Shown here piece after piece: positions 2,996 through 39,260 of a stretch of DNA of 45,045 bases (its first letter is position 1; each line of letters begins with the position of its first letter). The DNA comes from an uncultured bacterium. GTDB lineage: Bacteria; Bacillota_I; Bacilli_A; RF39; UBA660. A program made the translations under genes and the position numbers. Below the pieces are notes generated by a model. The model did not search any database. It was not told where the DNA came from and saw nothing but the letters and a program-made list of their open reading frames with translations. The DNA lies in the NCBI GenBank assembly GCA_949288335.1, contig CASEJU010000013.1:1-45045 (forward strand). The letters are read 5' to 3'.

Positions 2996-4000
2996 ATGGT
3001 CTATTATGAAAAAGAAAGACTGGTTAAAGAATTAGAAAATGAAGTTAATATAAAAGCAAAAGTTAAATCGTTAGAAAAAGACTTATCACAACTAGACATT
3101 CTTAAACTAGCAAGTTATTTAAAAGATTCCGAGAAGAAACAATTTATATTTGATTATTATGTTTTTGAAAATCCATACATAAATTATGAAAATTTAGCGA
3201 TGTATTTAAGGTGTGATGAAGATAGAATGTGTTTAATAAATAGTTTATTAAAATATAATGCTTTTATGAGTGCGTATGATGTTGCTAAGGTTATGAGTAA
3301 TCCTAAAGCGTTAGATGAAAAAGTTTTAAGAATGATGCTTTGTTCATGCAAGAATATTAGCGTTGATGATGTTGTTAAAGATTTTGATTTGCTATTTATA
3401 GATGAACTAATTAATATGAAGGATTATTATAATTTGTTGAAATATAAAAATAAGTTGTCTTATGAAATGGTTAATAAAATATGTTTAAAATCTTTTTCTT
3501 CTTTGGATGATTATAAAAAGATTACTAGTATTTTAAATGCTCAAGAAAGAAAAAAATACGTTAAATTGTTTTTAGACTCAATGTGTGATAATGCGTCGGT
3601 TGCTAACCAAATATTAAAAAATAAAGACTATGAAAAAGAAGATCATGAAAGATTAATTCTAATTATTTGTCATTTTGGGAAAGCGGATGTTATATATGAT
3701 GTTTTAATGCGTGAGGATTTATCTGATATGCAAACAAAAATGTTTGAAAAAGCACTTTTAAATACTAATAATATAGAATATATAGCATATTATTATTTTT
3801 ATAAAAATAAAGAAAAGTTTAACTTATTATTTGGAAGTTCATTATTGTTTTTATCGTATGTTTTGTTAAATGAAGATAAATTTACTAATAAAACCATTTT
3901 AGAAGATGTAAAAAACAAAATAAGATTAGAAGAAAACGAAAATTTGACTTTAAAGGTAAGAGAAAATATAACGTATACTAAAAAGAAAAGAGGTTGTTAA
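2996..4000 (+). CDS. Hypothetical helical protein, 334 aa, occupying the position where ribF/ribC normally follows truB
   Basis: The SD aggagg lies 8 nt upstream of ATG 2996. No motif recognised. Confidence 0.6.
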   Translation: MVYYEKERLVKELENEVNIKAKVKSLEKDLSQLDILKLASYLKDSEKKQFIFDYYVFENPYINYENLAMYLRCDEDRMCLINSLLKYNAFMSAYDVAKVMSNPKALDEKVLRMMLCSCKNISVDDVVKDFDLLFIDELINMKDYYNLLKYKNKLSYEMVNKICLKSFSSLDDYKKITSILNAQERKKYVKLFLDSMCDNASVANQILKNKDYEKEDHERLILIICHFGKADVIYDVLMREDLSDMQTKMFEKALLNTNNIEYIAYYYFYKNKEKFNLLFGSSLLFLSYVLLNEDKFTNKTILEDVKNKIRLEENENLTLKVRENITYTKKKRGC

Positions 4001-8294: not shown

Positions 8295-8939
8295 ATGCTT
8301 AAGATATTAATCGTTGAAGATGAAAAAAACATTAGAACAATAATAAAAAAATACTTAAGTAAGTTTGATATTACTTGTATTGAAGCTGATAATGGTAAAA
8401 AAGGACTGGAATTATTTTTAGATAATAAAAATAGTATTGATTTAATTTTAATGGACGTTATGATGCCTGTTATGGATGGTGTTACGGCAACAAAAGAAAT
8501 AAGGAAGGTAAGTGATGTTCCTATTATAATGCTTACCGCTAAAAGCGAGGATGAAGATGAAATAGAAGGATTAGAAGTAGGTGCTAATGATTATGTTACA
8601 AAACCATTTAATTTAGATGTTTTACTTCTTAGGATTAAAAAAATTATTAACATAGAAAACACTAACGAACTAGAGCTTTCTAAAGAACAAAGATCAGTAA
8701 TAAAAAACGGAAAGTTAATTCCGTTGACAAAAAAAGAGTATTTAATATTAGAATATTTTTTTGAAAATCCAAACATAATTTTAACTCGTGACCAAATTTT
8801 AAATCGGGTATGGGGAATAGACTACTTTGGTGATGATAGGGTTGTTGATACAAACATAAAAAGAATAAGAAAAAAAATTGATGAAGAAAAAAGATACATA
8901 AAAACTTCATCTGGAACGGGATATATATTTGTTAAATAA
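8295..8939 (+). CDS. OmpR/PhoB-family two-component response regulator
   Basis: Receiver domain (ILIVEDE ... LILMDVMMP ... LTAK) plus a winged-helix Trans_reg_C domain (LTKKEYLILEYF ... RVVDTNIKRIRKKI). Confidence 0.92.
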   Translation: MLKILIVEDEKNIRTIIKKYLSKFDITCIEADNGKKGLELFLDNKNSIDLILMDVMMPVMDGVTATKEIRKVSDVPIIMLTAKSEDEDEIEGLEVGANDYVTKPFNLDVLLLRIKKIINIENTNELELSKEQRSVIKNGKLIPLTKKEYLILEYFFENPNIILTRDQILNRVWGIDYFGDDRVVDTNIKRIRKKIDEEKRYIKTSSGTGYIFVK

Positions 8940-10353
8940 AAAAAGAGTATCAATAAAGTACAAAATATTCATAGGAGTAGGTTTATTCGTTATATTAAAT
9001 ATAATTATTAATTTATTAATAGTTAAGTTATCGATTAATGATATATACTTAAGTTTAGAAAAAAAAGAGTTAAAAAAAGAGTATGAACTTATTAGTAAAA
9101 ACATTAATAATGAAGATAAATTGTTTAACATAATTTATAATGCTAGCAATAACGGTATAAGAATAAAAGTGCTAGATAATGATTTTAATCTTTTATACAG
9201 CGCTTTTAGTGATAAGATTGATAAAAGATTTACTAATTTTGATTTAATATTATTAAATTCTTTAAAAGATAATGAAAAAAAGATAATTACTTTAGAAAAC
9301 AAAAGAAAAAGTGGTTATGATATTCATTTGGTTGGGAAAACATCTTATGGTTATACTATTATATCATCTTCTATTGATAGTATTAAAAAAGATGCTAAGA
9401 CGACCATGATTGTTATTTTGGTAACATCTCTTATAACTTTTGGTATTCTTTTGCTAGTAGCGTATTTTATATCAAAATTATTTAGTAAAAAAATAAAAGA
9501 GATAAAAGATGTAACCGATGGAATTACAAACCTTAACTTTGATAAGAAAATTGACGTAAAATCTAATGATGAGTTAGGGGATTTATTTAAAAACATTAAC
9601 GATATGAGTAATAAGCTAGAAAGCAACATCAAGGAACTTGAAGAAGCTAATAAAAAACTTAAACAAGATTTAGTTGATAAAGAAAAACAAGAAAAAGCAA
9701 GAAAAAAATTAATCGCAAATATTTCTCATGAGTTTAAAACGCCGCTTACTATTATCTCGGGATACTCACAGTTAATGATAGATGAAGTTAAAAAACCTGA
9801 AAATAAAAAAAATATGCAAATTATTATAAATGAATCAGAACGATTAGGGGATTTAGTTCATGAGTTTTTAGAGCTTTCAAGACTGGAAAGTGGAAGTATA
9901 GTACTTAATAAAACCGATGTTAATATGAAAGATATCATTATTTGTGAACTTGATAAATTATCGGTTAAAATAAAACGTAAAAAAATAAATGTTACTACTA
10001 ACTTTAATGGTAACCAAATTATTAAAGCGGATGAAAAACAGATTTCTAAGGTAATAGAAAATATTTTGACTAACGCCATAAAATTTGTTAAAAACGAAAA
10101 TAAAATATCAATAAAGACTTATAGTAAGGGTGAATATTTTTACTACGAAGTATTTAATACCGGAGATAATATAAAACAAGAAGAGTTGGAAAATATATTT
10201 AATTCATATTATAAGGATAAAAGTGCTAGAAATAAAGAAGGTACCGGGCTTGGACTTACGATAGTAAAAGCAATAATTAATCTTCACGAAGGAAACTGTG
10301 AAGTTAAGAATTTACCTCATGGGGTTAAGTTTATAATAAGTATAAAAAAATAG
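8929..10353 (+). CDS. Sensor histidine kinase (2 TM, HAMP, HisKA, HATPase_c)
   Basis: H-box SHEFKTPLT and G-boxes (GTGLGLTIVK), with two hydrophobic segments flanking an extracellular loop. It overlaps the response-regulator stop by 11 nt, so the TTG start is tentative. Confidence 0.9.
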   Translation: MLNKKRVSIKYKIFIGVGLFVILNIIINLLIVKLSINDIYLSLEKKELKKEYELISKNINNEDKLFNIIYNASNNGIRIKVLDNDFNLLYSAFSDKIDKRFTNFDLILLNSLKDNEKKIITLENKRKSGYDIHLVGKTSYGYTIISSSIDSIKKDAKTTMIVILVTSLITFGILLLVAYFISKLFSKKIKEIKDVTDGITNLNFDKKIDVKSNDELGDLFKNINDMSNKLESNIKELEEANKKLKQDLVDKEKQEKARKKLIANISHEFKTPLTIISGYSQLMIDEVKKPENKKNMQIIINESERLGDLVHEFLELSRLESGSIVLNKTDVNMKDIIICELDKLSVKIKRKKINVTTNFNGNQIIKADEKQISKVIENILTNAIKFVKNENKISIKTYSKGEYFYYEVFNTGDNIKQEELENIFNSYYKDKSARNKEGTGLGLTIVKAIINLHEGNCEVKNLPHGVKFIISIKK

Positions 10354-16171: not shown

Positions 16172-16441
16172 ATGTTTTTTAATAATAACAAATTTTTTGC
16201 ACAAGGAGGATGTTGTTGCCAAGATAATTGTCATGAACAATGTCCTTGCCAACCAGTTATTGAACCAACCATTGAAAGGTGTGTTACAAAAGACATATGT
16301 CACACCGTAGAACATATTTGTCCAATTCACACTAGAATAATTAATAATCATATAATTCAGCATAATTATACTCCAGAATATACTTGTTCTGAAGAAAACA
16401 TAGTAACTAACGTTGATCCTGGTTGCTGCAATAACTTTTAA
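16172..16441 (+). CDS. Cys/His-rich spore coat protein, CotD-family-like (89 aa)
   Basis: The pattern (CCCQDNCHEQCPCQPVIEPT...HTVEHICPIHTRIINNHIIQHNY...NVDPGCC) resembles B. subtilis CotD (HPTHCC..., repeated H-x-hP/H-T-x-VN-H, C-terminal CC). Strong SD taaggggga. Confidence 0.6.
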   Translation: MFFNNNKFFAQGGCCCQDNCHEQCPCQPVIEPTIERCVTKDICHTVEHICPIHTRIINNHIIQHNYTPEYTCSEENIVTNVDPGCCNNF

Positions 16442-23415: not shown

Positions 23416-24699
23416 ATGAAGAAAATATGTCTTTTTATAGTTTGTTTATTTCTTTTTGTTCCGCTGGTTTACGCGGTAGATACTAATAGTACTACAACAA
23501 GTAAAAATGTCACAACCCAAGAAGAAACTACCACCGATAGTGAATCTAGCTGTGAAGCAAGTGGCGATTGTACGAATGAAAATGAACAAACGTCACAAGA
23601 AACTGAAGAAACAAGCGATGATGGATTATTAAGCGATGGAAAAAGTGCGATATTAATAGAAGCTTCAACTGGTAAAGTTTTATATGAAAAAAACTCTCAT
23701 GATAGATATGCTCCAGCTTCTATGACTAAAATTATGAGTATGATATTAATCATGGAAGAAATCGAAAAGGGTAATTTAAAATGGAATGAAAAATTAGTGG
23801 CAAGTGAATATGCTGCGTCAATGGGTGGAAGTCAAATATTTTTACAGCCTAACGAAAAGATGAGCGTTAAGGATTTGTTTAAGGCGGTAGCAATTGGCTC
23901 TGCTAATGATGCTACGGTTGTTTTTGCAGAAAGGATCGCTGGAACCGAAGCAAAATTCGTTGAGATGATGAATGATAAAGCAAAAGAATTAGGTCTTAAA
24001 GATACTAATTTTAAAAACTCAGTAGGGCTTGATGAAGCAAACCATTACTCTTCAGCATACGACATGGCTTATATGGCAAGAGAACTTGTTAAACACGAAA
24101 AGATTTTTGAGTTTACTACCATATACGAAGATTATTTAAGGCAAAATACCGATAATAAATTCTGGCTTGTTAACACTAATAAATTAATCAAAACGTATGA
24201 AGGTGCTGATGGGCTTAAGACTGGTTATACTAAAGAAGCAGGATATTGTTTAACGGCTACCGCAAACAAAAATAACATGAGATTAATTGGAACAATCATG
24301 GGAGCTGGTGATAGTAAGTCAAGGAATAGTAACATGGCAACATTGTTAGATTACGGATATAACTCTTATGAGATGCAAGTTGAGGTTAAAAAAGGAGAAG
24401 TAGTATCAAGAAAGTATATATCAAAAGCTAAAGATGAAACCGTAGAAATAGTTCCAAAAGATGACGCGAGTGTACTTATTGAAAGGGGAAACAAAAAAGA
24501 GGCACTAAATTACGAAATGAGTTTAAACAAACTAAAGCTTCCAATAAAAAGCGGGGATAGTGTAGGTACATTAAAGTTAAAAGAGGGTAATAAAGTAATA
24601 AGTACCGTTGATTTAACCGTTAAAAAAGACGTGGAAAAAGCTGGTATTTTAGAACTTTATAAAAGATCTATTAAGAGTATATTAAAAGGAGCCTATTAA
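23416..24699 (+). CDS. Serine-type D-Ala-D-Ala carboxypeptidase (peptidase S11, PBP5/DacB/DacF-like)
   Basis: Signal peptide followed by a T/E/S-rich linker. Motifs SMTK (APASMTKIMS), SxN (GSANDA) and KTG (LKTGYT) are present, plus a C-terminal PBP5_C-like domain. Confidence 0.9.
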   Translation: MKKICLFIVCLFLFVPLVYAVDTNSTTTSKNVTTQEETTTDSESSCEASGDCTNENEQTSQETEETSDDGLLSDGKSAILIEASTGKVLYEKNSHDRYAPASMTKIMSMILIMEEIEKGNLKWNEKLVASEYAASMGGSQIFLQPNEKMSVKDLFKAVAIGSANDATVVFAERIAGTEAKFVEMMNDKAKELGLKDTNFKNSVGLDEANHYSSAYDMAYMARELVKHEKIFEFTTIYEDYLRQNTDNKFWLVNTNKLIKTYEGADGLKTGYTKEAGYCLTATANKNNMRLIGTIMGAGDSKSRNSNMATLLDYGYNSYEMQVEVKKGEVVSRKYISKAKDETVEIVPKDDASVLIERGNKKEALNYEMSLNKLKLPIKSGDSVGTLKLKEGNKVISTVDLTVKKDVEKAGILELYKRSIKSILKGAY

Positions 24700-29690: not shown

Positions 29691-30347
29691 ATGTATATTG
29701 ATTTAGATAAAATAAAAAGAGATTTTAAAAGCGGCACAAAAGATAAAAAATTGCCTATGGAAGAAATCTATAAATTAAAGAGTCAAGGTATGTCATATAG
29801 AAAAATAGCAGAAAAGTATGATTGTAATTATGATACGATAAGGCGAAGATTAACGAAATATTGTGAGCAAAATAATTTAGAAATTCTAAAAGTTAAAAGT
29901 GGTCCAAAACAAAAGACTTTACCTATGAAAGAAATATATGAATTAAAAAGCAAGGGACAAACGTATGAAGAAATAGCAGAAAAATATAATTGTTCTGCCA
30001 TGACAATATTAAGAAGATTAACGAAATATTGTGAGCAAAAAAATTTAGAAATTCCAAAAAATAAAGAATTACCAATAGAAGAAATCTATAAATTAAAGAG
30101 TCAAGGTATGTCATATAGAAAGATAGCAGAAAAACATGATTGTTCATACGGGACAATAAGACAAAGATTAATAGAATATGAGGATGAACTTATTTTAAGA
30201 AATAAATATTTAGAGATATTATTATATGATTTTAATAAAATCATAGATAACGTTTTAAATAAAACAATCGGGTCTTTTTACGATGATAAAGAGAATCAAA
30301 AGCAAGATGATTATTCATTTATAAAAAATAAAAGTCGCTTAAATTAA
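29691..30347 (+). CDS. Protein made of three tandem resolvase/IS30-type helix-turn-helix modules (218 aa), with no catalytic domain
   Basis: LP(M/I)(E/K)EIYxLKSxGxxYxxIAEKxxCxxxTIxxRL occurs three times, starting near 29751, 29919 and 30069. SD ggtga precedes ATG 29691. Confidence 0.75.
   Translation: MYIDLDKIKRDFKSGTKDKKLPMEEIYKLKSQGMSYRKIAEKYDCNYDTIRRRLTKYCEQNNLEILKVKSGPKQKTLPMKEIYELKSKGQTYEEIAEKYNCSAMTILRRLTKYCEQKNLEIPKNKELPIEEIYKLKSQGMSYRKIAEKHDCSYGTIRQRLIEYEDELILRNKYLEILLYDFNKIIDNVLNKTIGSFYDDKENQKQDDYSFIKNKSRLN
29751..30188 (+). repeat. Three intragenic tandem repeats (about 150-170 nt each) with mosaic near-identical stretches
   Basis: Units 1 and 3 share gaagaaatctataaattaaagagtcaaggtatgtcatatagaaa(a/g)atagcagaaaa. 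Units 1 and 2 share agattaacgaaatattgtgagcaaaa(t/a)aatttagaaattc. Confidence 0.9.
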
Positions 30348-30374
30348 GTGATTTTTTTATCTTTTGTAAGCTTG

Positions 30375-30381
30375 TGTCGAA
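30375..30381 (+). promoter_or_regulatory. Consensus Spo0A box upstream of spoIIAA
   Basis: TGTCGAA, an exact match to the 0A-box consensus, lies about 55 nt upstream of the spoIIAA start. Confidence 0.45.
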
Positions 30382-30436
30382 TCTCTTTTTTTTATTTTCT
30401 AATAGTGATTAAATGATATTACTAGGAGGAATTAAG

Positions 30437-30754
30437 TTGCTAAAGGTATTAATGGAGTTTAGAAAAGGAGTACTTTTCGTAAGATTATTTGGAACGCTTA
30501 ATGAAAATACAATTAAAACGTTTGAAGTCGAAGTTAAGGAGGTGATTATAGAAGCTGGGATAAAGTACGTTGTTTTAAACGTCGATAATTTAGATAGTGT
30601 ATCAAATGATGGGGTAAAAGAAATTAAAAGGCTAAAAAGAATGGTTGAAAAAACCGAGGGTAAGTTTTTCTTGTTCGGCGGAGAAGTAAAGGAACTTAAA
30701 TCACTTGTTAATTTAGAAAACGAACTAAAGGTTTTTGAAAGGGTTGTGATATAG
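30437..30754 (+). CDS. spoIIAA: STAS-domain anti-sigma-factor antagonist (SpoIIAA-like)
   Basis: Aligns with B. subtilis SpoIIAA (VLFVRLFGTLNENT / IKYVVLNVDNL...DG / GKFFLFGG..VKEL). TTG 30437 fits SD taggagga (30423-30430). ATG 30413 and ATG 30452 are alternatives. Confidence 0.8.
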   Translation: MLKVLMEFRKGVLFVRLFGTLNENTIKTFEVEVKEVIIEAGIKYVVLNVDNLDSVSNDGVKEIKRLKRMVEKTEGKFFLFGGEVKELKSLVNLENELKVFERVVI

Positions 30755-31425
30755 TGATAGAATATTCTTGCAAGCTAGATGAAGTAATTAGACAAAACAG
30801 TAATTTAGTTTATGGTGTTTGTGCTAAATATAATAATTATTTTGATAAAGAAGATTTATATCAAGAAGGTAAGATGGGTCTAATTGATGCGTATAAAAAC
30901 TTTGATAAAACTAAAGGAGTAAAGTTTTCTACTTATGCCTTTCCTTACATAGTAGGAAGGGTAAGTAATTACGTAAGGGAAAATAAAAACATAAAGGTAA
31001 GTAAAGATTTGGCAAGGTTAGGTAAAAAAATAAATGAATATATTGACAAACATTTTGAGGTGCGTGGGTATAAACCAAGTATTCATGACATTGCCTTAAT
31101 GTTAGAAGTAAAAGAAGAAAAAGTAATAAGTGCTTTAGAAGCCTGTCAAAAAATTAAAAGTTTAGATGAACAAATAAATGATGATGAGAAAAAAATTACG
31201 CTTCTTGATGTAACAGCTTTTAATCAGAATGTTTCAAATGAACAAATGATTGATTTAAAAGAAGCCTTTAATTATCTAAGTGATGAAGAAAAAAACTTAC
31301 TGATAAAAAGATACTATAATGATTTTACCCAAAGTGAAGTAGCAAAAGATATGGGTGTAAATCAGGTTTATGTATCAAGAATGGAAAAAAAGGCCTTGTC
31401 AAAAATGAAAAGTAAGATGACATAA
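30754..31425 (+). CDS. sigF: Sporulation-type group 3 sigma factor (SigF-like)
   Basis: FSTYAFPYIVGRVSNYVRENKNIKVSKDLARLGKKI and LLIKRYYNDFTQSEVAKDMGVNQVYVSRMEKKAL align closely with B. subtilis SigF regions 2.4/3.0 and 4.2. The GTG start overlaps the spoIIAA stop (TAGTG). Confidence 0.85.
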   Translation: MIEYSCKLDEVIRQNSNLVYGVCAKYNNYFDKEDLYQEGKMGLIDAYKNFDKTKGVKFSTYAFPYIVGRVSNYVRENKNIKVSKDLARLGKKINEYIDKHFEVRGYKPSIHDIALMLEVKEEKVISALEACQKIKSLDEQINDDEKKITLLDVTAFNQNVSNEQMIDLKEAFNYLSDEEKNLLIKRYYNDFTQSEVAKDMGVNQVYVSRMEKKALSKMKSKMT

Positions 31426-31427
31426 AA

Positions 31428-31462
31428 AAGAATAGTGAATTTATTTCATTATTCTTTTTTTT
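31428..31462 (+). terminator. Rho-independent terminator after sigF
   Basis: aagaatagtga (31428-31438) / tcattattctt (31446-31456), 11 bp with one G-U pair, then a T-run. Confidence 0.8.
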
Positions 31463-34657: not shown

Positions 34658-34672
34658 ATACTGGTGATAAAA

Positions 34673-35113
34673 ATGAACAAGGAAAGTTATAAAAAGTTAA
34701 CAAGTAAGATTATTCCAAAAGAAAACAAAGTAAAAAATGGTATAATTTCTTTTTTCGTTGGAGGATTAATTGGCTTAATTGGTCAGATAATGGTATCCGT
34801 ACTTGAAAATAATTTTGATCTAGCTCATAAAGATGCAACATCAATAATGATTGTAATATTAATTTTTATTGCATCACTTTTAACCGCGATAGGTTTTTTT
34901 GATAATTTGGTTTCTAAGGCTAAAGCAGGTCTTATTGTTCCGATAACCGGGTTTGCTCACGCGATGACATCTTCCATGCTTGATTATAAAAAAGAGGGCT
35001 TTGTAACCGGAATAGGTGCTAATGCTTTTAAACTTACCGGTAGCGTAATTTTATATGGTGTTGTATCAGCTTATATATTTGGAACAATAAGATACTTATT
35101 TTTTGGAGGTTAA
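34673..35113 (+). CDS. spoVAC: Stage V sporulation protein AC
   Basis: Close similarity to B. subtilis SpoVAC (GLIVPITGFAHAMTSSMLDYKKEGFVTGIGANAFKLTGSVILYG). The start is ATG 34673, after SD ggtga. Confidence 0.92.
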   Translation: MNKESYKKLTSKIIPKENKVKNGIISFFVGGLIGLIGQIMVSVLENNFDLAHKDATSIMIVILIFIASLLTAIGFFDNLVSKAKAGLIVPITGFAHAMTSSMLDYKKEGFVTGIGANAFKLTGSVILYGVVSAYIFGTIRYLFFGG

Positions 35114-35116
35114 TAT

Positions 35117-36112
35117 ATGACGATAGAATTTAATAATGTTTATGTAAAAAGTGTATCAGCCGTAGCAGGACATGATGAAAAGGAAGGAACCTTTGGAAAA
35201 CTTTATGATAAAACTTATGATGATTATTATGCTAATGAAAAAACCTTTGAGCAAGCAGAAATTAAAATGATTGAAGATGCAAGTGATATAGCGCTTAAAA
35301 AAGCAAGTTATAAAATGGATGATATAAACTTTATAATTGGTTCAGACCTTCTTAACCAAATAACGGCAAACGCGTATTCATCAGTTAAGTTTAAAAGACC
35401 GTTTTTAGGTGTTTATAACGCTTGTGCAAGTTTATGTGAAGAATTTATAATAGCATCAAGTATGCTTCAAAACAAAGAGGTTAATAACGCTCTTTTAAAC
35501 ATCTCATCACATAATATGACGGCCGAAAGACAGTATCGAAATCCAGTTGAGTATGGATGCCCTAAACCTTTAAGGTCTACTTTTACGGTAACCGGGGCGG
35601 CATCATGCGTTTTAACAAAGGAAAAAACAGATATTAAAGTTACAAACGCAACCGTTGGAACACCAACTGATATGGGAATAACTGATCCTTATGACATGGG
35701 CTCGGTTATGGCACCTTCTGCTGCTGAAGTTTTATTTAGTCATTTAAAAAACACCAATACCAAGCCGGAAGACTATGACCTTATCCTAACTGGTGATTTA
35801 GGAGTTTATGGAAAACAAATATTAATAGAGTATTTTAAAAGTGCTTATGGTATTAACATTGAAGGTAATTTAGAGGACTCATCATCCATTATTTATGATA
35901 GAAAAAAGCAAACCAAGGTAAACGCCGGAGGATCAGGCCCGTGCTGCCTTGCCTTAGTTTTTTATACCGACATTTTAAACAGGATGAAAAAAGGAGAGTT
36001 AAAAAAGGTTTTGCTTATTGCAACCGGTGCTTTAATGAGTCCTACCATGAATAACCAAAAACTATCTATTCCTAGTGTTTCTCACGCGGTATGTTTGGAG
36101 GCGATTAAATGA
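35117..36112 (+). CDS. spoVAD: Stage V sporulation protein AD (thiolase-like fold)
   Basis: 331 aa with a typical SpoVAD N-terminus (...SVSAVAGHDEKEGTFGKLYDKTYDD). It sits between spoVAC and spoVAEb. Confidence 0.9.
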   Translation: MTIEFNNVYVKSVSAVAGHDEKEGTFGKLYDKTYDDYYANEKTFEQAEIKMIEDASDIALKKASYKMDDINFIIGSDLLNQITANAYSSVKFKRPFLGVYNACASLCEEFIIASSMLQNKEVNNALLNISSHNMTAERQYRNPVEYGCPKPLRSTFTVTGAASCVLTKEKTDIKVTNATVGTPTDMGITDPYDMGSVMAPSAAEVLFSHLKNTNTKPEDYDLILTGDLGVYGKQILIEYFKSAYGINIEGNLEDSSSIIYDRKKQTKVNAGGSGPCCLALVFYTDILNRMKKGELKKVLLIATGALMSPTMNNQKLSIPSVSHAVCLEAIK

Positions 36113-36459
36113 TATTTTTATATTCGTTTTTATTCTGCGGAGTAGTTTGTCTAATAGGACAGGTAATTTTAGATAACACCAAGCTTACCCCGGGACATGT
36201 TACAAGTATGTTTGTTGTTATTGGTGCTTTTTTAGATTCCTTTGGATTATATGATAAGTTTTTATCTTGGTTTGGAGCAGGAGCATCAGTTCCAATAACT
36301 TCTTTTGGACATTCTTTAATTCATGGCGCACTTGCAAAAGCTCATGAATCAGGCGTTTTAGGTTTACTTGCTGGTATGTTTAGTTTAACTTCCGTTGGAA
36401 TAGTTGCTGCAATCGTGTTTGGCTTTATATTAACCCTTATATTTAAAGCAAAAGACTAG
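36109..36459 (+). CDS. spoVAE: Stage V sporulation protein AEb
   Basis: 116-aa membrane protein paralogous to SpoVAC (GAGASVPITSFGHSLIHGA). It overlaps spoVAD by 4 nt. Confidence 0.9.
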   Translation: MIFLYSFLFCGVVCLIGQVILDNTKLTPGHVTSMFVVIGAFLDSFGLYDKFLSWFGAGASVPITSFGHSLIHGALAKAHESGVLGLLAGMFSLTSVGIVAAIVFGFILTLIFKAKD

Positions 36460-36506: not shown

Positions 36507-39260
36507 ATGAAAGAATTAAACAATGATTTTAAAATACCTTTATTTGATAGTAAGATAAAATTTTATTTTTCTTTGCTTTTTATATCAATAAATGATTATG
36601 TTATTTTAACGAATTATTATGGAGATAACATAAACATATTTGATTATGAACATCATGATGATACTTATGATAAAGACGCGTTAAAATTACGCTTTGTTTT
36701 TGAAAACATAAAGTGGAACAATGATAAAATAGAACTAAAAGATAAGGTAATAATGAGGATGTTTTCTAAAGAAGAGATAGTAAGTTATTATGATAAATAT
36801 AGTCTTGTTAATGCTAATTTTAACGTTAGTGATCCAATTTCCCAAGAGCGTTTTTACATTTATATGTTACTAGAAAAAGTACGCGAGAAAAAAGAACTTG
36901 AGTATGGAACAATATATGAACTTTTTGATACGTTTAGTGATGAGGAAATACTAAATGCGGTTGCTAACCTTGATTTTGAGGATAAACGTACCTTTATTGA
37001 ACTTTTTGGCTTAAAAGGTGACATACCATTTGAGATAAATTCGAATGACCACGTAAAAAATGACATATTAATAAAGTTATACAGCTACATGCTTTTAAAA
37101 AGAGATGAGGCTGATATTTCGTCAATTATAAGAAACATAAAAGAAAAAAGTGCTTATGAATATAGTTTTTATGATTATATTAGGATGCTTTGCTCTGATA
37201 TGGATTTAAGTGATGAATTTATTTTTGAGATGTTTGTTAAGATGGATTATAATTCAAAAGAGCGTATTAAAGAAGTTTTTGGAGATAAACTAAATAAAAA
37301 AGTAAAACCTCCAAAAGATAAAGAATTTAAAAAAGTAACGGAAACGTTAAGCGTTATAGTTAAGGTAAATAAAGAATACCGTAAAAGAAAAGAAAGTATA
37401 AAGACAAACATAAAAAAAGTTGGATTAAATAATAAAACTGAAAATAAAGAAAAAACAAAAGAACAAAAAAAGGAACCAAAAGAAGAGGTAAAAGAAAAGA
37501 AAAGTAATTCAGAAGAAAATAAAAAGAAAAAAGAAGAAGTAAATAAAGGTGAAAATAAAAAACAAAAATTAAATGATTTTTTACTAGAAAATAACTTAGA
37601 TAAAAAAGATTTTGAAAAAGCATTATCATTATTAGATGGTTTAAATAAAAGTGTAATAGTACTTTATTATGGTGTTAAAAATAGTCCTTTAAATGTAGAA
37701 GGAATATCACAAAAACTTGGAAAACCATTAGAAGATATTTTAATTATTTTAAATAAAGCTGAAGAAAAAATTGTAAGTTTAATTAAAACTAGAAAAATAA
37801 ATAAATCTAAAAAAGAAGATAAGCAACCTAAAAAAGAAGAGGATAAAAAAGAAAAGATAAAAGCATCTGACAAATTATATAATATAATTCAAACCAGCAT
37901 GGTTGCATCATCAACTTTAGAAGCTGCGATGCTTACGCTTGATAATACGGAAAGAACCATTTTAAATGCTGTTTTACACGCAAAGGAAAACGCTTTAAAA
38001 GAAGTATCATTAAGTCTTAACATAAAAGAAGAGCAGGCAAAGGATATATATGAAAGTGCATCTTTAAAAATCATTTCTTTTTTAGAATTAGATAAAAAGG
38101 AAGAAAAAAAAGAAGAACAAATACCACCTAAAAAAGAAGAACAAATACCACCTGAAAAAGAAGAAAAACCAAAAGAAGAGCTAAAAGAAAGCGATAAGAA
38201 GAAAGAAAACTTAGGAAAAGCATCTTCACTTAATGAGTTTTTAAAAGAAACCGGTTTAACAAAAATGGAATTTTTTAATAGTTTTTCGAAGTTAGATGGT
38301 TTTAGTAAAAGCGTTTTAACAATGTATTTAGGTCTTAATGGTCACTTTTCATCTACTTTTGAAATAGCTAAAAAATACGGAAGAACAACAAAGGATATAG
38401 AACGCGTTATATCTTCTTCGAAGGATTTTATAGTAAAAGAATCAAATAAAGTAGACAAGATTAAATTAAATGACTTTCTTAATAAAAGCAAAATGAGTAT
38501 GGATGATTTTAAAGAGTCTTTAAAGAATGTATCTTCGTTAAATAAGAATTTATTAATGGATTATTTTGGTGTTGGCACAAAGGCCTTAGAAGTGGACGTA
38601 TTATCAAGAAAGTATGGTAAGACGCCAAAGGAAATTAATGCCATGGTAGGTGCAGCATTAAATGAGATATCAACTAAAAAAAGTAAGAAAAAGGATAATG
38701 ATTTGTCTGATAAATTGACTAAATTTTTAACCGTTAACAAAATAACAAAAGAACAATTCATGAGTGCTTTAGAGCATATTACACCAGAAGAGAAAATGAT
38801 GATTTCCATGTATTTTGGACTTAATGGTTTGCAGATGAGTATTCCTCAAATAGCGCTTAAAACAAAAACTAATTCAATTTTTATTAAAGAAAGTTTAGAA
38901 AAAGCGTTAAAGCAAATCAATTCTTTGGCAAAAAACAAAGATTTAGGTAAGAATACTAGGGAAGAAAAATATCAAAAAGTTAAAAGGCAGATTTTAAAAG
39001 CATCAAGTATATTATACCAAGATCCTTCGTTTATGATTTTCGTTGGAACTAATCCGCGGTTTTCAAATCTTTTATCAATAATTAACATGAATTTAAGCAT
39101 TGATGATGCAGCTAAATTTTTAAATGTTTCATCCGATGCATTAATTAATGATTTAATGTCACTTGAAGTTATGTGTGAAGAGTTTACGAAAAACGCATCA
39201 ACTAAAAATAGTAGTGGATTTCAAGATGAAGAGAATTTAAAAAGACAAAGAAGTATATAA
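36507..39260 (+). CDS. Large (917 aa) protein with at least five tandem sigma-70-region-4/YlxM-like HTH modules separated by K/E-rich linkers
   Basis: Repeated pattern: (K/S)L(N/T)xFL...(D/E)F...L...(K/E)xxxhxxY(F/L)G(L/V)xxxxxxxxxIxxKxGxxxxxIxxxxxxAxxxI. SD agagga precedes ATG 36507. Confidence 0.7.
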   Translation: MKELNNDFKIPLFDSKIKFYFSLLFISINDYVILTNYYGDNINIFDYEHHDDTYDKDALKLRFVFENIKWNNDKIELKDKVIMRMFSKEEIVSYYDKYSLVNANFNVSDPISQERFYIYMLLEKVREKKELEYGTIYELFDTFSDEEILNAVANLDFEDKRTFIELFGLKGDIPFEINSNDHVKNDILIKLYSYMLLKRDEADISSIIRNIKEKSAYEYSFYDYIRMLCSDMDLSDEFIFEMFVKMDYNSKERIKEVFGDKLNKKVKPPKDKEFKKVTETLSVIVKVNKEYRKRKESIKTNIKKVGLNNKTENKEKTKEQKKEPKEEVKEKKSNSEENKKKKEEVNKGENKKQKLNDFLLENNLDKKDFEKALSLLDGLNKSVIVLYYGVKNSPLNVEGISQKLGKPLEDILIILNKAEEKIVSLIKTRKINKSKKEDKQPKKEEDKKEKIKASDKLYNIIQTSMVASSTLEAAMLTLDNTERTILNAVLHAKENALKEVSLSLNIKEEQAKDIYESASLKIISFLELDKKEEKKEEQIPPKKEEQIPPEKEEKPKEELKESDKKKENLGKASSLNEFLKETGLTKMEFFNSFSKLDGFSKSVLTMYLGLNGHFSSTFEIAKKYGRTTKDIERVISSSKDFIVKESNKVDKIKLNDFLNKSKMSMDDFKESLKNVSSLNKNLLMDYFGVGTKALEVDVLSRKYGKTPKEINAMVGAALNEISTKKSKKKDNDLSDKLTKFLTVNKITKEQFMSALEHITPEEKMMISMYFGLNGLQMSIPQIALKTKTNSIFIKESLEKALKQINSLAKNKDLGKNTREEKYQKVKRQILKASSILYQDPSFMIFVGTNPRFSNLLSIINMNLSIDDAAKFLNVSSDALINDLMSLEVMCEEFTKNASTKNSSGFQDEENLKRQRSI
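37566..38930 (+). repeat. Array of divergent protein-level repeats (about 70-75 aa each) inside the 917-aa CDS
   Basis: Approximate module positions are 37566-37790, 37872-38088, 38226-38440, 38463-38680 and 38711-38927. Weaker copies lie upstream (about 36900-37030, 37160-37290) and downstream (about 39090-39180). Confidence 0.7.
38106..38153 (+). repeat. Perfect 24-bp tandem duplication (KKEEQIPP x2)
   Basis: aaaaaagaagaacaaataccacct occurs at 38106-38129 and again at 38130-38153. Confidence 0.95.

Follow-up and report, generated by a model that had tools for sequence, protein, structure and literature searches.

A spoIIAA-sigF gene pair without spoIIAB in an RF39-order bacterium and its relatives

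The gene pair and its signals

The DNA analysed here, a window of 45,045 nucleotides (nt) from an uncultured bacterium (contig CASEJU010000013.1, positions 1 to 45,045), carries on its forward strand a gene for a STAS-domain protein that runs directly into a gene for a SigF-type sigma factor. The pair recalls the spoIIA operon of Bacillus and Clostridium (spoIIAA-spoIIAB-sigF, acting with SpoIIE), whose SpoIIAA/SpoIIAB/SpoIIE switch is the textbook case of partner switching. As in those genera, the STAS gene comes first and the SigF-type gene last, and a Spo0A box is present; as in B. subtilis, a dacF-like gene lies upstream and spoVA genes lie downstream. In contrast to them, the middle gene spoIIAB is missing, the STAS protein has Asn in place of Ser58, and the sigma factor lacks about 30 N-terminal residues. 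The coordinates are collected in Table 1.

The locus was compared with its counterparts in other genomes, taken from a scan with a sigma factor profile over one genome per GTDB species; the best 80 of 189 relatives were kept, and their sigma factors are 38-99% identical to that of the window. Two groups can be told apart: group 1 (L006-L036), whose sigma factors share 63% identity or more with that of the window, and group 2 (L037-L085), with 37-46%. The sequence inspected thus comprises 45 kb of the source genome and about 12 kb of each of the 80 others. The best named match of the window sigma factor, at 92% identity, is in Candidatus Aphodocola excrementigallinarum; Ca. Aphodocola is equated by its authors with the GTDB genus CAG-594 of the order RF39, family CAG-433 (PMC8035907). 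Other relatives bear the labels uncultured Bacilli, Mollicutes or Tenericutes, or Clostridium sp. CAG:594 and CAG:1193, and membership of RF39 is documented for group 1 only.

The first open reading frame (ORF) of the pair matches the Pfam STAS family (PF01740, E = 5e-9). Its likely start is a TTG codon that stands 7 nt behind an AGGAGG motif and interchanges with GTG and ATG in the relatives. The second ORF has a short N-terminus, as its match begins about 30 residues into the SigF/SigG-family model. The STAS stop codon shares one base with the sigma start codon, and this junction, GTTGTGATATAGTG, is nearly invariant across the group 1 loci. The initial annotation had described the two genes as fused head-to-tail, with physically no room for spoIIAB. 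The overlap and the missing room are borne out, but the proteins are separate and there is no fusion at the protein level. One apparent natural STAS-sigma fusion of 324 residues (P0088; L086, 441-449) was rejected as an artefact, since its DNA reads ATA TAG TTG and the gene caller had read the in-frame TAG as Gln. Read-through gene calls of this kind could seed false domain fusions in large protein collections.

The heptamer TGTCGAA, the Spo0A-box consensus, lies upstream of the pair. A single copy of it would not be significant, as 3.5 copies are expected by chance in 45 kb and one is found. However, 69 of 78 orthologous loci, from both groups, have the same heptamer at about -78 to -83, counted from a Glu codon that is conserved in the STAS gene, and this constant distance shows conservation of the box far beyond chance. 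In several loci a second TGTCGAA box lies 26 bp further upstream. The perfect Spo0A box remarked on in the initial annotation is therefore both present and phylogenetically conserved. In the inspected loci of both groups, TGnTTAAAT or TGnTAAATT follows 27 nt past the box. If this element marks an extended -10 promoter, its spacing would leave the box at about -46 to -40. Such a position would suit activation by Spo0A~P, and we regard the element as a putative Spo0A-dependent promoter. A simple sigma-70 scan did not call the -10 element, which has no -35 partner. The promoter of the B. subtilis spoIIA operon is of the sigma-H type, whereas the one seen here looks like an extended -10 type.

We also considered that TGTCGAA might be no more than the loop of a terminator belonging to the upstream gene. 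This was rejected, as no hairpin forms there in the window (0.0 kcal/mol) or in most loci, and the box is conserved regardless. A hairpin with a T-run around the box does occur in some relatives (L010, L025, L030). When positions 30366-30396 are set beside their counterparts in L007, L008, L010, L025 and L030, the box falls within the loop and stem of a hairpin in some of these relatives, and the arms co-vary (AAGGCTTT/AAAGCCTT, AAGCTATT/AATAGCTT and AGAGCTT/AAGCTCT) ahead of a T-run, an arrangement that looks like a terminator for the upstream gene. At 30366-30396 of the window itself the T-run is present and there is no stable hairpin.

Downstream, an AT-rich hairpin starts four bases past the sigma stop codon, and none of 200 shuffled sequences folds as well; a strict terminator scan missed it for want of G-C pairs. 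Since the STAS and sigma ORFs are followed by this terminator, the unit is a two-gene operon whose genes are apparently transcribed together.

Table 1. Features of the gene pair and its surroundings (positions in the window)
Feature	Position	Strand	Remarks
D-Ala-D-Ala carboxypeptidase gene, DacF/DacB-like	23416..24699	+	Upstream synteny marker; Peptidase_S11 and PBP5_C
Spo0A-box consensus TGTCGAA	30375..30381	+	27 nt upstream of the putative -10 hexamer; sole copy in the window
Extended -10-like element TGaTTAAAT	30406..30414	+	Putative promoter -10; recurs in relatives
Ribosome-binding site of the STAS gene, AGGAGG	30424..30429	+	Kept in group 1 loci, followed after 7 nt by TTG, GTG or ATG
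STAS gene (SpoIIAA-type)	30437..30754	+	105 residues from TTG 30437; longest ORF form from 30413
Codons S-N-D-G	30602..30613	+	Aligned with D57-S58-S59-G60 of SpoIIAA; Asn (30605-30607) on Ser58
TAGTG junction	30752..30756	+	STAS stop TAG 30752-30754 shares one base with sigma GTG; putative translational coupling
SigF-type sigma gene	30754..31425	+	223 residues, GTG start 30754-30756; Pfam regions 2, 3 and 4
Intrinsic terminator, AT-rich hairpin and T-run	31424..31460	+	Minimum free energy -15.2 kcal/mol, z -5.6
spoVAC-spoVAD-spoVAEB	34664..36459	+	Downstream synteny marker; Pfam SpoVAC_SpoVAEB, SpoVAD (E = 1e-109), SpoVAC_SpoVAEB

Probable orthology with spoIIAA and sigF, and the missing spoIIAB

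A profile of the STAS family finds the SpoIIAA structures of the PDB first (1TH8_B, E = 2e-19; 1AUZ_A, E = 1e-18), ahead of TM1442 (9e-8) and RsbS (5e-5). Similarly, TIGR02886 (spore_II_AA) is the top NCBIfam family for all 32 STAS members scanned, the best E-value among them being 4e-17; the member from the window reaches 25.8 bits on this model, against a cut-off of 114.75. For the window sigma factor the NCBIfam scores are 178.8 bits with SigF, 178.3 with SigF/G, 154.7 with SigG and 111.7 with SigB, and the corresponding values for a group 2 member are 203 (SigF), 146 (SigG) and 120 (SigB). In the PDB, the window sigma factor matches best the sigma-F that was solved in complex with SpoIIAB (chain 1L0O_C, 186 bits; the runner-up reaches 131), and all 81 sigma orthologues score highest against B. 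subtilis SigF. Thus, on the question of whether the protein groups with SigF or with SigB, these comparisons side with SigF.

The window sigma factor scores below all equivalog cut-offs (178.8 against 321 for SigF; the cut-off of the SigB/F/G subfamily is 234), which points to a divergent sigma-F. The three sigma-F orthologues tested, that of the window included, reach 167-203 bits against the cut-off of 321, while SigK in one group 2 locus scores 307 bits against a cut-off of 252. A SigK at or above its cut-off beside a sigma-F far below fits with changed constraints on sigma-F. As to the SigK gene itself (L072, 3175-3876, reverse strand; cluster 1), it lies 2-5 kb upstream of the STAS-sigF pair and on the opposite strand in about ten group 2 loci, and the N-terminal segment of its product resembles a pro-sequence by eye.

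The order of genes in B. subtilis is dacF, spoIIAA-AB-sigF, spoVA. In most of the related loci the order is a dacF-like gene, sometimes one extra gene, the STAS gene, the sigma gene and spoVAC-spoVAD-spoVAEB, and this apparent match to the B. subtilis order minus spoIIAB supports orthology. In many loci the STAS gene is preceded, directly or with a single gene in between, by a gene for a related S11 carboxypeptidase, and most of the 80 have spoVAC-AD-AEB behind the sigma gene. The window has a few housekeeping genes inserted on both sides, between the dacF-like gene, the pair and spoVA. Synteny, the STAS family and the sigma factor are three independent lines that agree in pointing to probable orthology with spoIIAA and sigF. 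The evidence supports reading the pair as a spoIIAA-sigF remnant of the spoIIA operon, with spoIIAB cleanly missing in between.

This state is not an oddity of a single contig. A STAS ORF lies immediately upstream of the sigma gene in 77 of the 80 loci. Of the 78 pairs analysed, 75 have between -10 and +14 nt separating the STAS stop from the sigma start; two have 37 nt, and L056, whose sigma ORF is truncated, has 102 nt. In three of the 80 loci the SigF-type gene stands alone (L063, 5590-5994; L080, 5935-5985; L084, 5924-6033). We searched every ORF of at least 45 residues with phmmer, heuristics off, using B. subtilis SpoIIAB and RsbW as queries. No SpoIIAB/RsbW-like ORF was found in the window, where the best E was 2.8, and over the window and the 80 related loci, within 6 kb of the sigma gene, nothing scored better than E 0.1. 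The SpoIIAB query was validated by its detection of the SpoIIAB of the PDB (E 2e-68) and of RsbW (E 8e-14). The comparison of operon structure that the initial annotation had proposed therefore shows the STAS-sigma pair without spoIIAB to be a trait of the clade. Its remark that the 45 kb hold no small HATPase_c ORF also stands: by Pfam, which covered the called genes of the contig and scans of unannotated ORFs, the sole HATPase_c protein is a 474-residue HisKA sensor kinase at 8929-10353, beside a response regulator.

The loop of the STAS protein that corresponds to the phosphorylation site of SpoIIAA aligns without gaps both by MAFFT and in the profile alignment to 1TH8_B and 1AUZ_A, where the family sequence s-i-d-e-e-g lies on F-M-D-S-S-G. 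In the window the loop reads S-V-S-N-D-G, with Asn on the phospho-acceptor Ser58. Across 78 orthologues the Ser58 column holds K in 12, N in 11, D in 9, M in 9, E in 8, S in 7, I in 5 and Y in 4, plus rarer residues. Of the 78, 65 have G in the Gly60 column; the Asp57 column is D in 39, S in 23 and T in 9. One group 1 species (L030, 213-530) retains a canonical-looking I-D-S-S-G loop. The early suspicion that the phosphorylatable Ser may be absent is thus upheld by both alignments, and the STAS protein has lost the conserved phospho-acceptor. The gene nevertheless remains under purifying selection, with a median ratio of non-synonymous to synonymous substitution rates (dN/dS) of 0.17 over 447 group 1 pairs with unsaturated dS. 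We hold it as very probable, taking these points jointly, that spoIIAB was excised cleanly, that essentially the whole clade shares this state, and that a STAS protein without its phospho-Ser has been kept by selection while abutting or overlapping sigF.

Possible control of sigma-F without a linked kinase

That spoIIAB and spoIIE are reduced or absent at the level of RF39 has already been published, in one sentence of the KEGG presence/absence survey of Field, Bowerman and Hugenholtz (2024; PMC10868615), which predicts 'markedly different regulation'. The coupled pair, the lost phospho-Ser, the Spo0A box and a mechanism do not figure in the accessible part of that paper. Likewise, none of the following turned up in our literature search: spoIIAA and sigF as a conserved coupled pair, a SpoIIAA that has lost its phospho-Ser, a Spo0A-box promoter conserved ahead of them, or the question of sigma-F gating that results. 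The canonical trio is present in Turicibacter, a member of a related order (PMC13492147).

The explanation that we favour, with some reserve, is that the window holds a reduced two-gene spoIIA operon, in an RF39-order bacterium near Ca. Aphodocola, in which sigma-F has been taken off the kinase/phosphatase switch. The operon would run from a promoter with a Spo0A box, through the SpoIIAA-type STAS gene and a sigF coupled to it in translation, to a terminator. Spo0A~P would turn it on; sigma-F would no longer be under the phospho-switch of the SpoIIAB kinase and the SpoIIE phosphatase; and the STAS protein, produced in step with sigma-F, would act without being phosphorylated. An antagonist needed only to displace SpoIIAB should have been lost together with SpoIIAB, so that the retention of the STAS gene beside sigF argues for a phosphorylation-independent role linked to sigma-F. 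The evolutionary distances of the two proteins fit such a role, as they co-vary beyond what the common phylogeny accounts for: with SpoVAD as the control variable, the partial Mantel r is 0.50 (p 3e-4), and control pairs give 0.10 and 0.16.

How the STAS protein might act can be pictured in two ways within this frame. In the likeliest version it would contact sigma-F, holding or escorting it until a cue in the forespore, such as turnover or a ligand, sets it free; alternatively, it would antagonise an unlinked inhibitor that is not a GHKL kinase. Direct contact is the single most likely version, although we put it forward only tentatively. The full form of this idea, in which the RF39 SpoIIAA-type STAS protein is a direct, phosphorylation-independent regulator of sigma-F and the two proteins make up a switch without anti-sigma kinase or phosphatase, is more doubtful still.

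Several points weigh against our interpretation. AlphaFold2 models of an artificial STAS-sigma fusion showed no confident domain packing (predicted template modelling scores 0.36 and 0.31), a weak test given a monomer model and poor alignments: in that of the first run STAS rows fell on the sigma region, and that of the second was shallow (8 + 8 sequences; predicted local distance difference test score 64). In the literature searched, no precedent came up for a STAS protein in direct contact with a sigma factor. The co-variation in rate could reflect the shared operon context rather than contact. The 3 of 80 loci that lack the STAS gene show that sigma-F can be retained in its absence. Group 1 proteins nearly always have Ser or Thr at the Asp57 position, one residue before the canonical phospho-site, so phosphorylation by some other kinase would be possible. 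The absence of the kinase gene is seen at the scale of the locus, and the wording of Field et al. for RF39 is 'reduced presence or complete absence'. Finally, RF39 has no cultured member and the literature on its sporulation is split: Field et al. predict spores with different regulation, while the machine-learning study SpoMAG gives RF39 metagenome-assembled genomes a sporulation probability of 0% and counts spoIIAB among nine universal genes of predicted spore formers.

The strongest rival shares much of our frame. It holds that SpoIIAB has been replaced by an inhibitor that is encoded elsewhere and is not related to it, perhaps a small zinc-ribbon or membrane anti-sigma factor, and that the STAS protein antagonises this inhibitor in response to a signal other than phosphorylation. 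We consider it possible if rather doubtful, and nearly as likely as direct contact. It would also fit a STAS gene kept beside sigF, and non-phospho antagonists are reportedly known from mycobacteria. However, the neighbourhood offers no conserved candidate beside the pair in both sequence groups: among conserved neighbours, only the dacF-like and spoVA genes are common to the two, a Tyr-rich membrane protein upstream being restricted to group 2 and HTH-repeat (helix-turn-helix) proteins that flank the pair being restricted to group 1. Moreover, if the antagonist were produced 1:1 with sigma-F and could not be switched, the inhibitor would presumably stay off at all times unless another input existed.

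A second rival, which we judge unlikely, is that RF39 does not sporulate and that the pair is a decaying relic, either vanishing or re-used as a stationary-phase or stress sigma module, with a STAS role unrelated to sigma-F. RF39 genomes are reduced and uncultured, the SpoMAG result points in this direction, three loci have no STAS gene, and both proteins score well under their NCBIfam equivalog cut-offs. Set against this, useless genes are rarely retained in reduced genomes and the dN/dS of the STAS gene indicates selection; in addition, the STAS and sigma genes, the Spo0A box, spoVAC-AD-AEB, the dacF-like gene, a SigK at its cut-off and a CotD-like ORF are intact across a deep clade. As for SpoMAG, the canonical gene sets used in its training contain spoIIAB, so that it would probably penalise RF39 by construction. 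The intact spoVA, the dacF-like gene, the CotD-like ORF, the SigK of a relative and the conserved Spo0A box would argue for a working spore programme.

Our reading of a sigma-F freed from the phospho-switch must also be set against a simple rearrangement, in which another part of the genome encodes a canonical spoIIAB (and spoIIE) and partner switching goes on in the classical way. The extent of the inspected DNA, and the wording of Field et al., which allows spoIIAB in some RF39 genomes, leave it some room. Yet a working kinase switch would preserve the Ser that is Asn here and unconserved over 78 orthologues, which makes a mere relocation of spoIIAB with an intact phospho-switch unlikely; adjacency has been lost clade-wide rather than sporadically; and in Field et al. 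both spoIIAB and spoIIE are reduced or absent in RF39. We regard the rearrangement as improbable. Least probable by far is an RsbV-SigB-type general stress module: although sigma-B, -F and -G form one family and the window protein lies below every equivalog cut-off, its SigF score (178.8 bits) is 67 bits above that for SigB (111.7), no RsbW was found next to it, all 81 orthologues and the PDB comparison prefer SigF, the E-values of the STAS profile for RsbS and TM1442 are worse than those for SpoIIAA by over ten orders of magnitude, and the dacF/spoVA synteny and the Spo0A box speak for sporulation.

Comparison with related systems helps to place the sigma-F operon proposed here. RsbV-RsbW-SigB likewise combines a STAS antagonist with a group 3 sigma factor of the same protein families; in contrast to it, the RF39 locus has no RsbW, encodes proteins closer to SigF and SpoIIAA, and lies among sporulation genes. 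The SigF-UsfX system of Mycobacterium tuberculosis also pairs a SigF-family sigma factor with a STAS antagonist, and its RsfA is said to be independent of phosphorylation; it was Beaucher and colleagues who, in 2002, reportedly described this non-phospho antagonism of RsfA acting on UsfX. Unlike the RF39 locus, where no such gene was seen, mycobacteria keep the RsbW-like anti-sigma factor UsfX, and sporulation is not part of the context.

The locus points to an order of abundant gut bacteria that combines sigma-F, a STAS protein without the conserved phospho-Ser, a Spo0A box, spoVA and, in at least some relatives, SigK, with no kinase gene beside sigF. If the kinase is absent genome-wide, then either a simpler way of activating sigma-F in one compartment exists or spores are made by an unconventional route. 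If direct regulation by the STAS protein is true, it would be a novel means of gating a sigma factor specific to one cell type, and would reduce the opening step of endospore development to a minimal form. Moreover, we anticipate that predictors built on canonical sporulation gene sets will misjudge the RF39 lineage.

Other genes of the window and of the related loci

Directly upstream of the STAS gene, the window encodes a 218-residue protein (29691-30347, forward strand) with three HTH repeats of about 50 residues (HTH_23/HTH_38/Sigma70_r4-like). Its group 1 relatives (cluster 7) range from 74 to 437 residues, which suggests that the number of repeats varies. In most group 2 loci, the place between the dacF-like and STAS genes is taken by the Tyr-rich protein mentioned above (cluster 5; for example L079, 4216-5544), which is absent from the window; it is 350-536 residues long, matches no Pfam or NCBIfam family and, by eye, begins and ends with a hydrophobic stretch.

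Just past spoVAEB lies a gene for a Lys/Glu-rich protein of 917 residues (36507-39260, forward strand), residues 372-421 of which match Sigma70_r4 (E = 6.7e-7). It is kept in several group 1 loci (cluster 14), and its relative in L023 has, by eye, several similar modules of the type 'ELYYG...LEEISEKIG'. Repeated modules resembling sigma region 4 within one protein are unusual.

Two large ORFs on the forward strand, at 184-2073 (629 residues) and 2996-4000 (334 residues), have no Pfam match. The CotD-like ORF lies at 16172-16441, also on the forward strand; its 89-residue product matches the Pfam inner spore coat family CotD (E = 5e-5, 24.2 bits against a cut-off of 22) and no NCBIfam family, and is a further hint of a spore programme.

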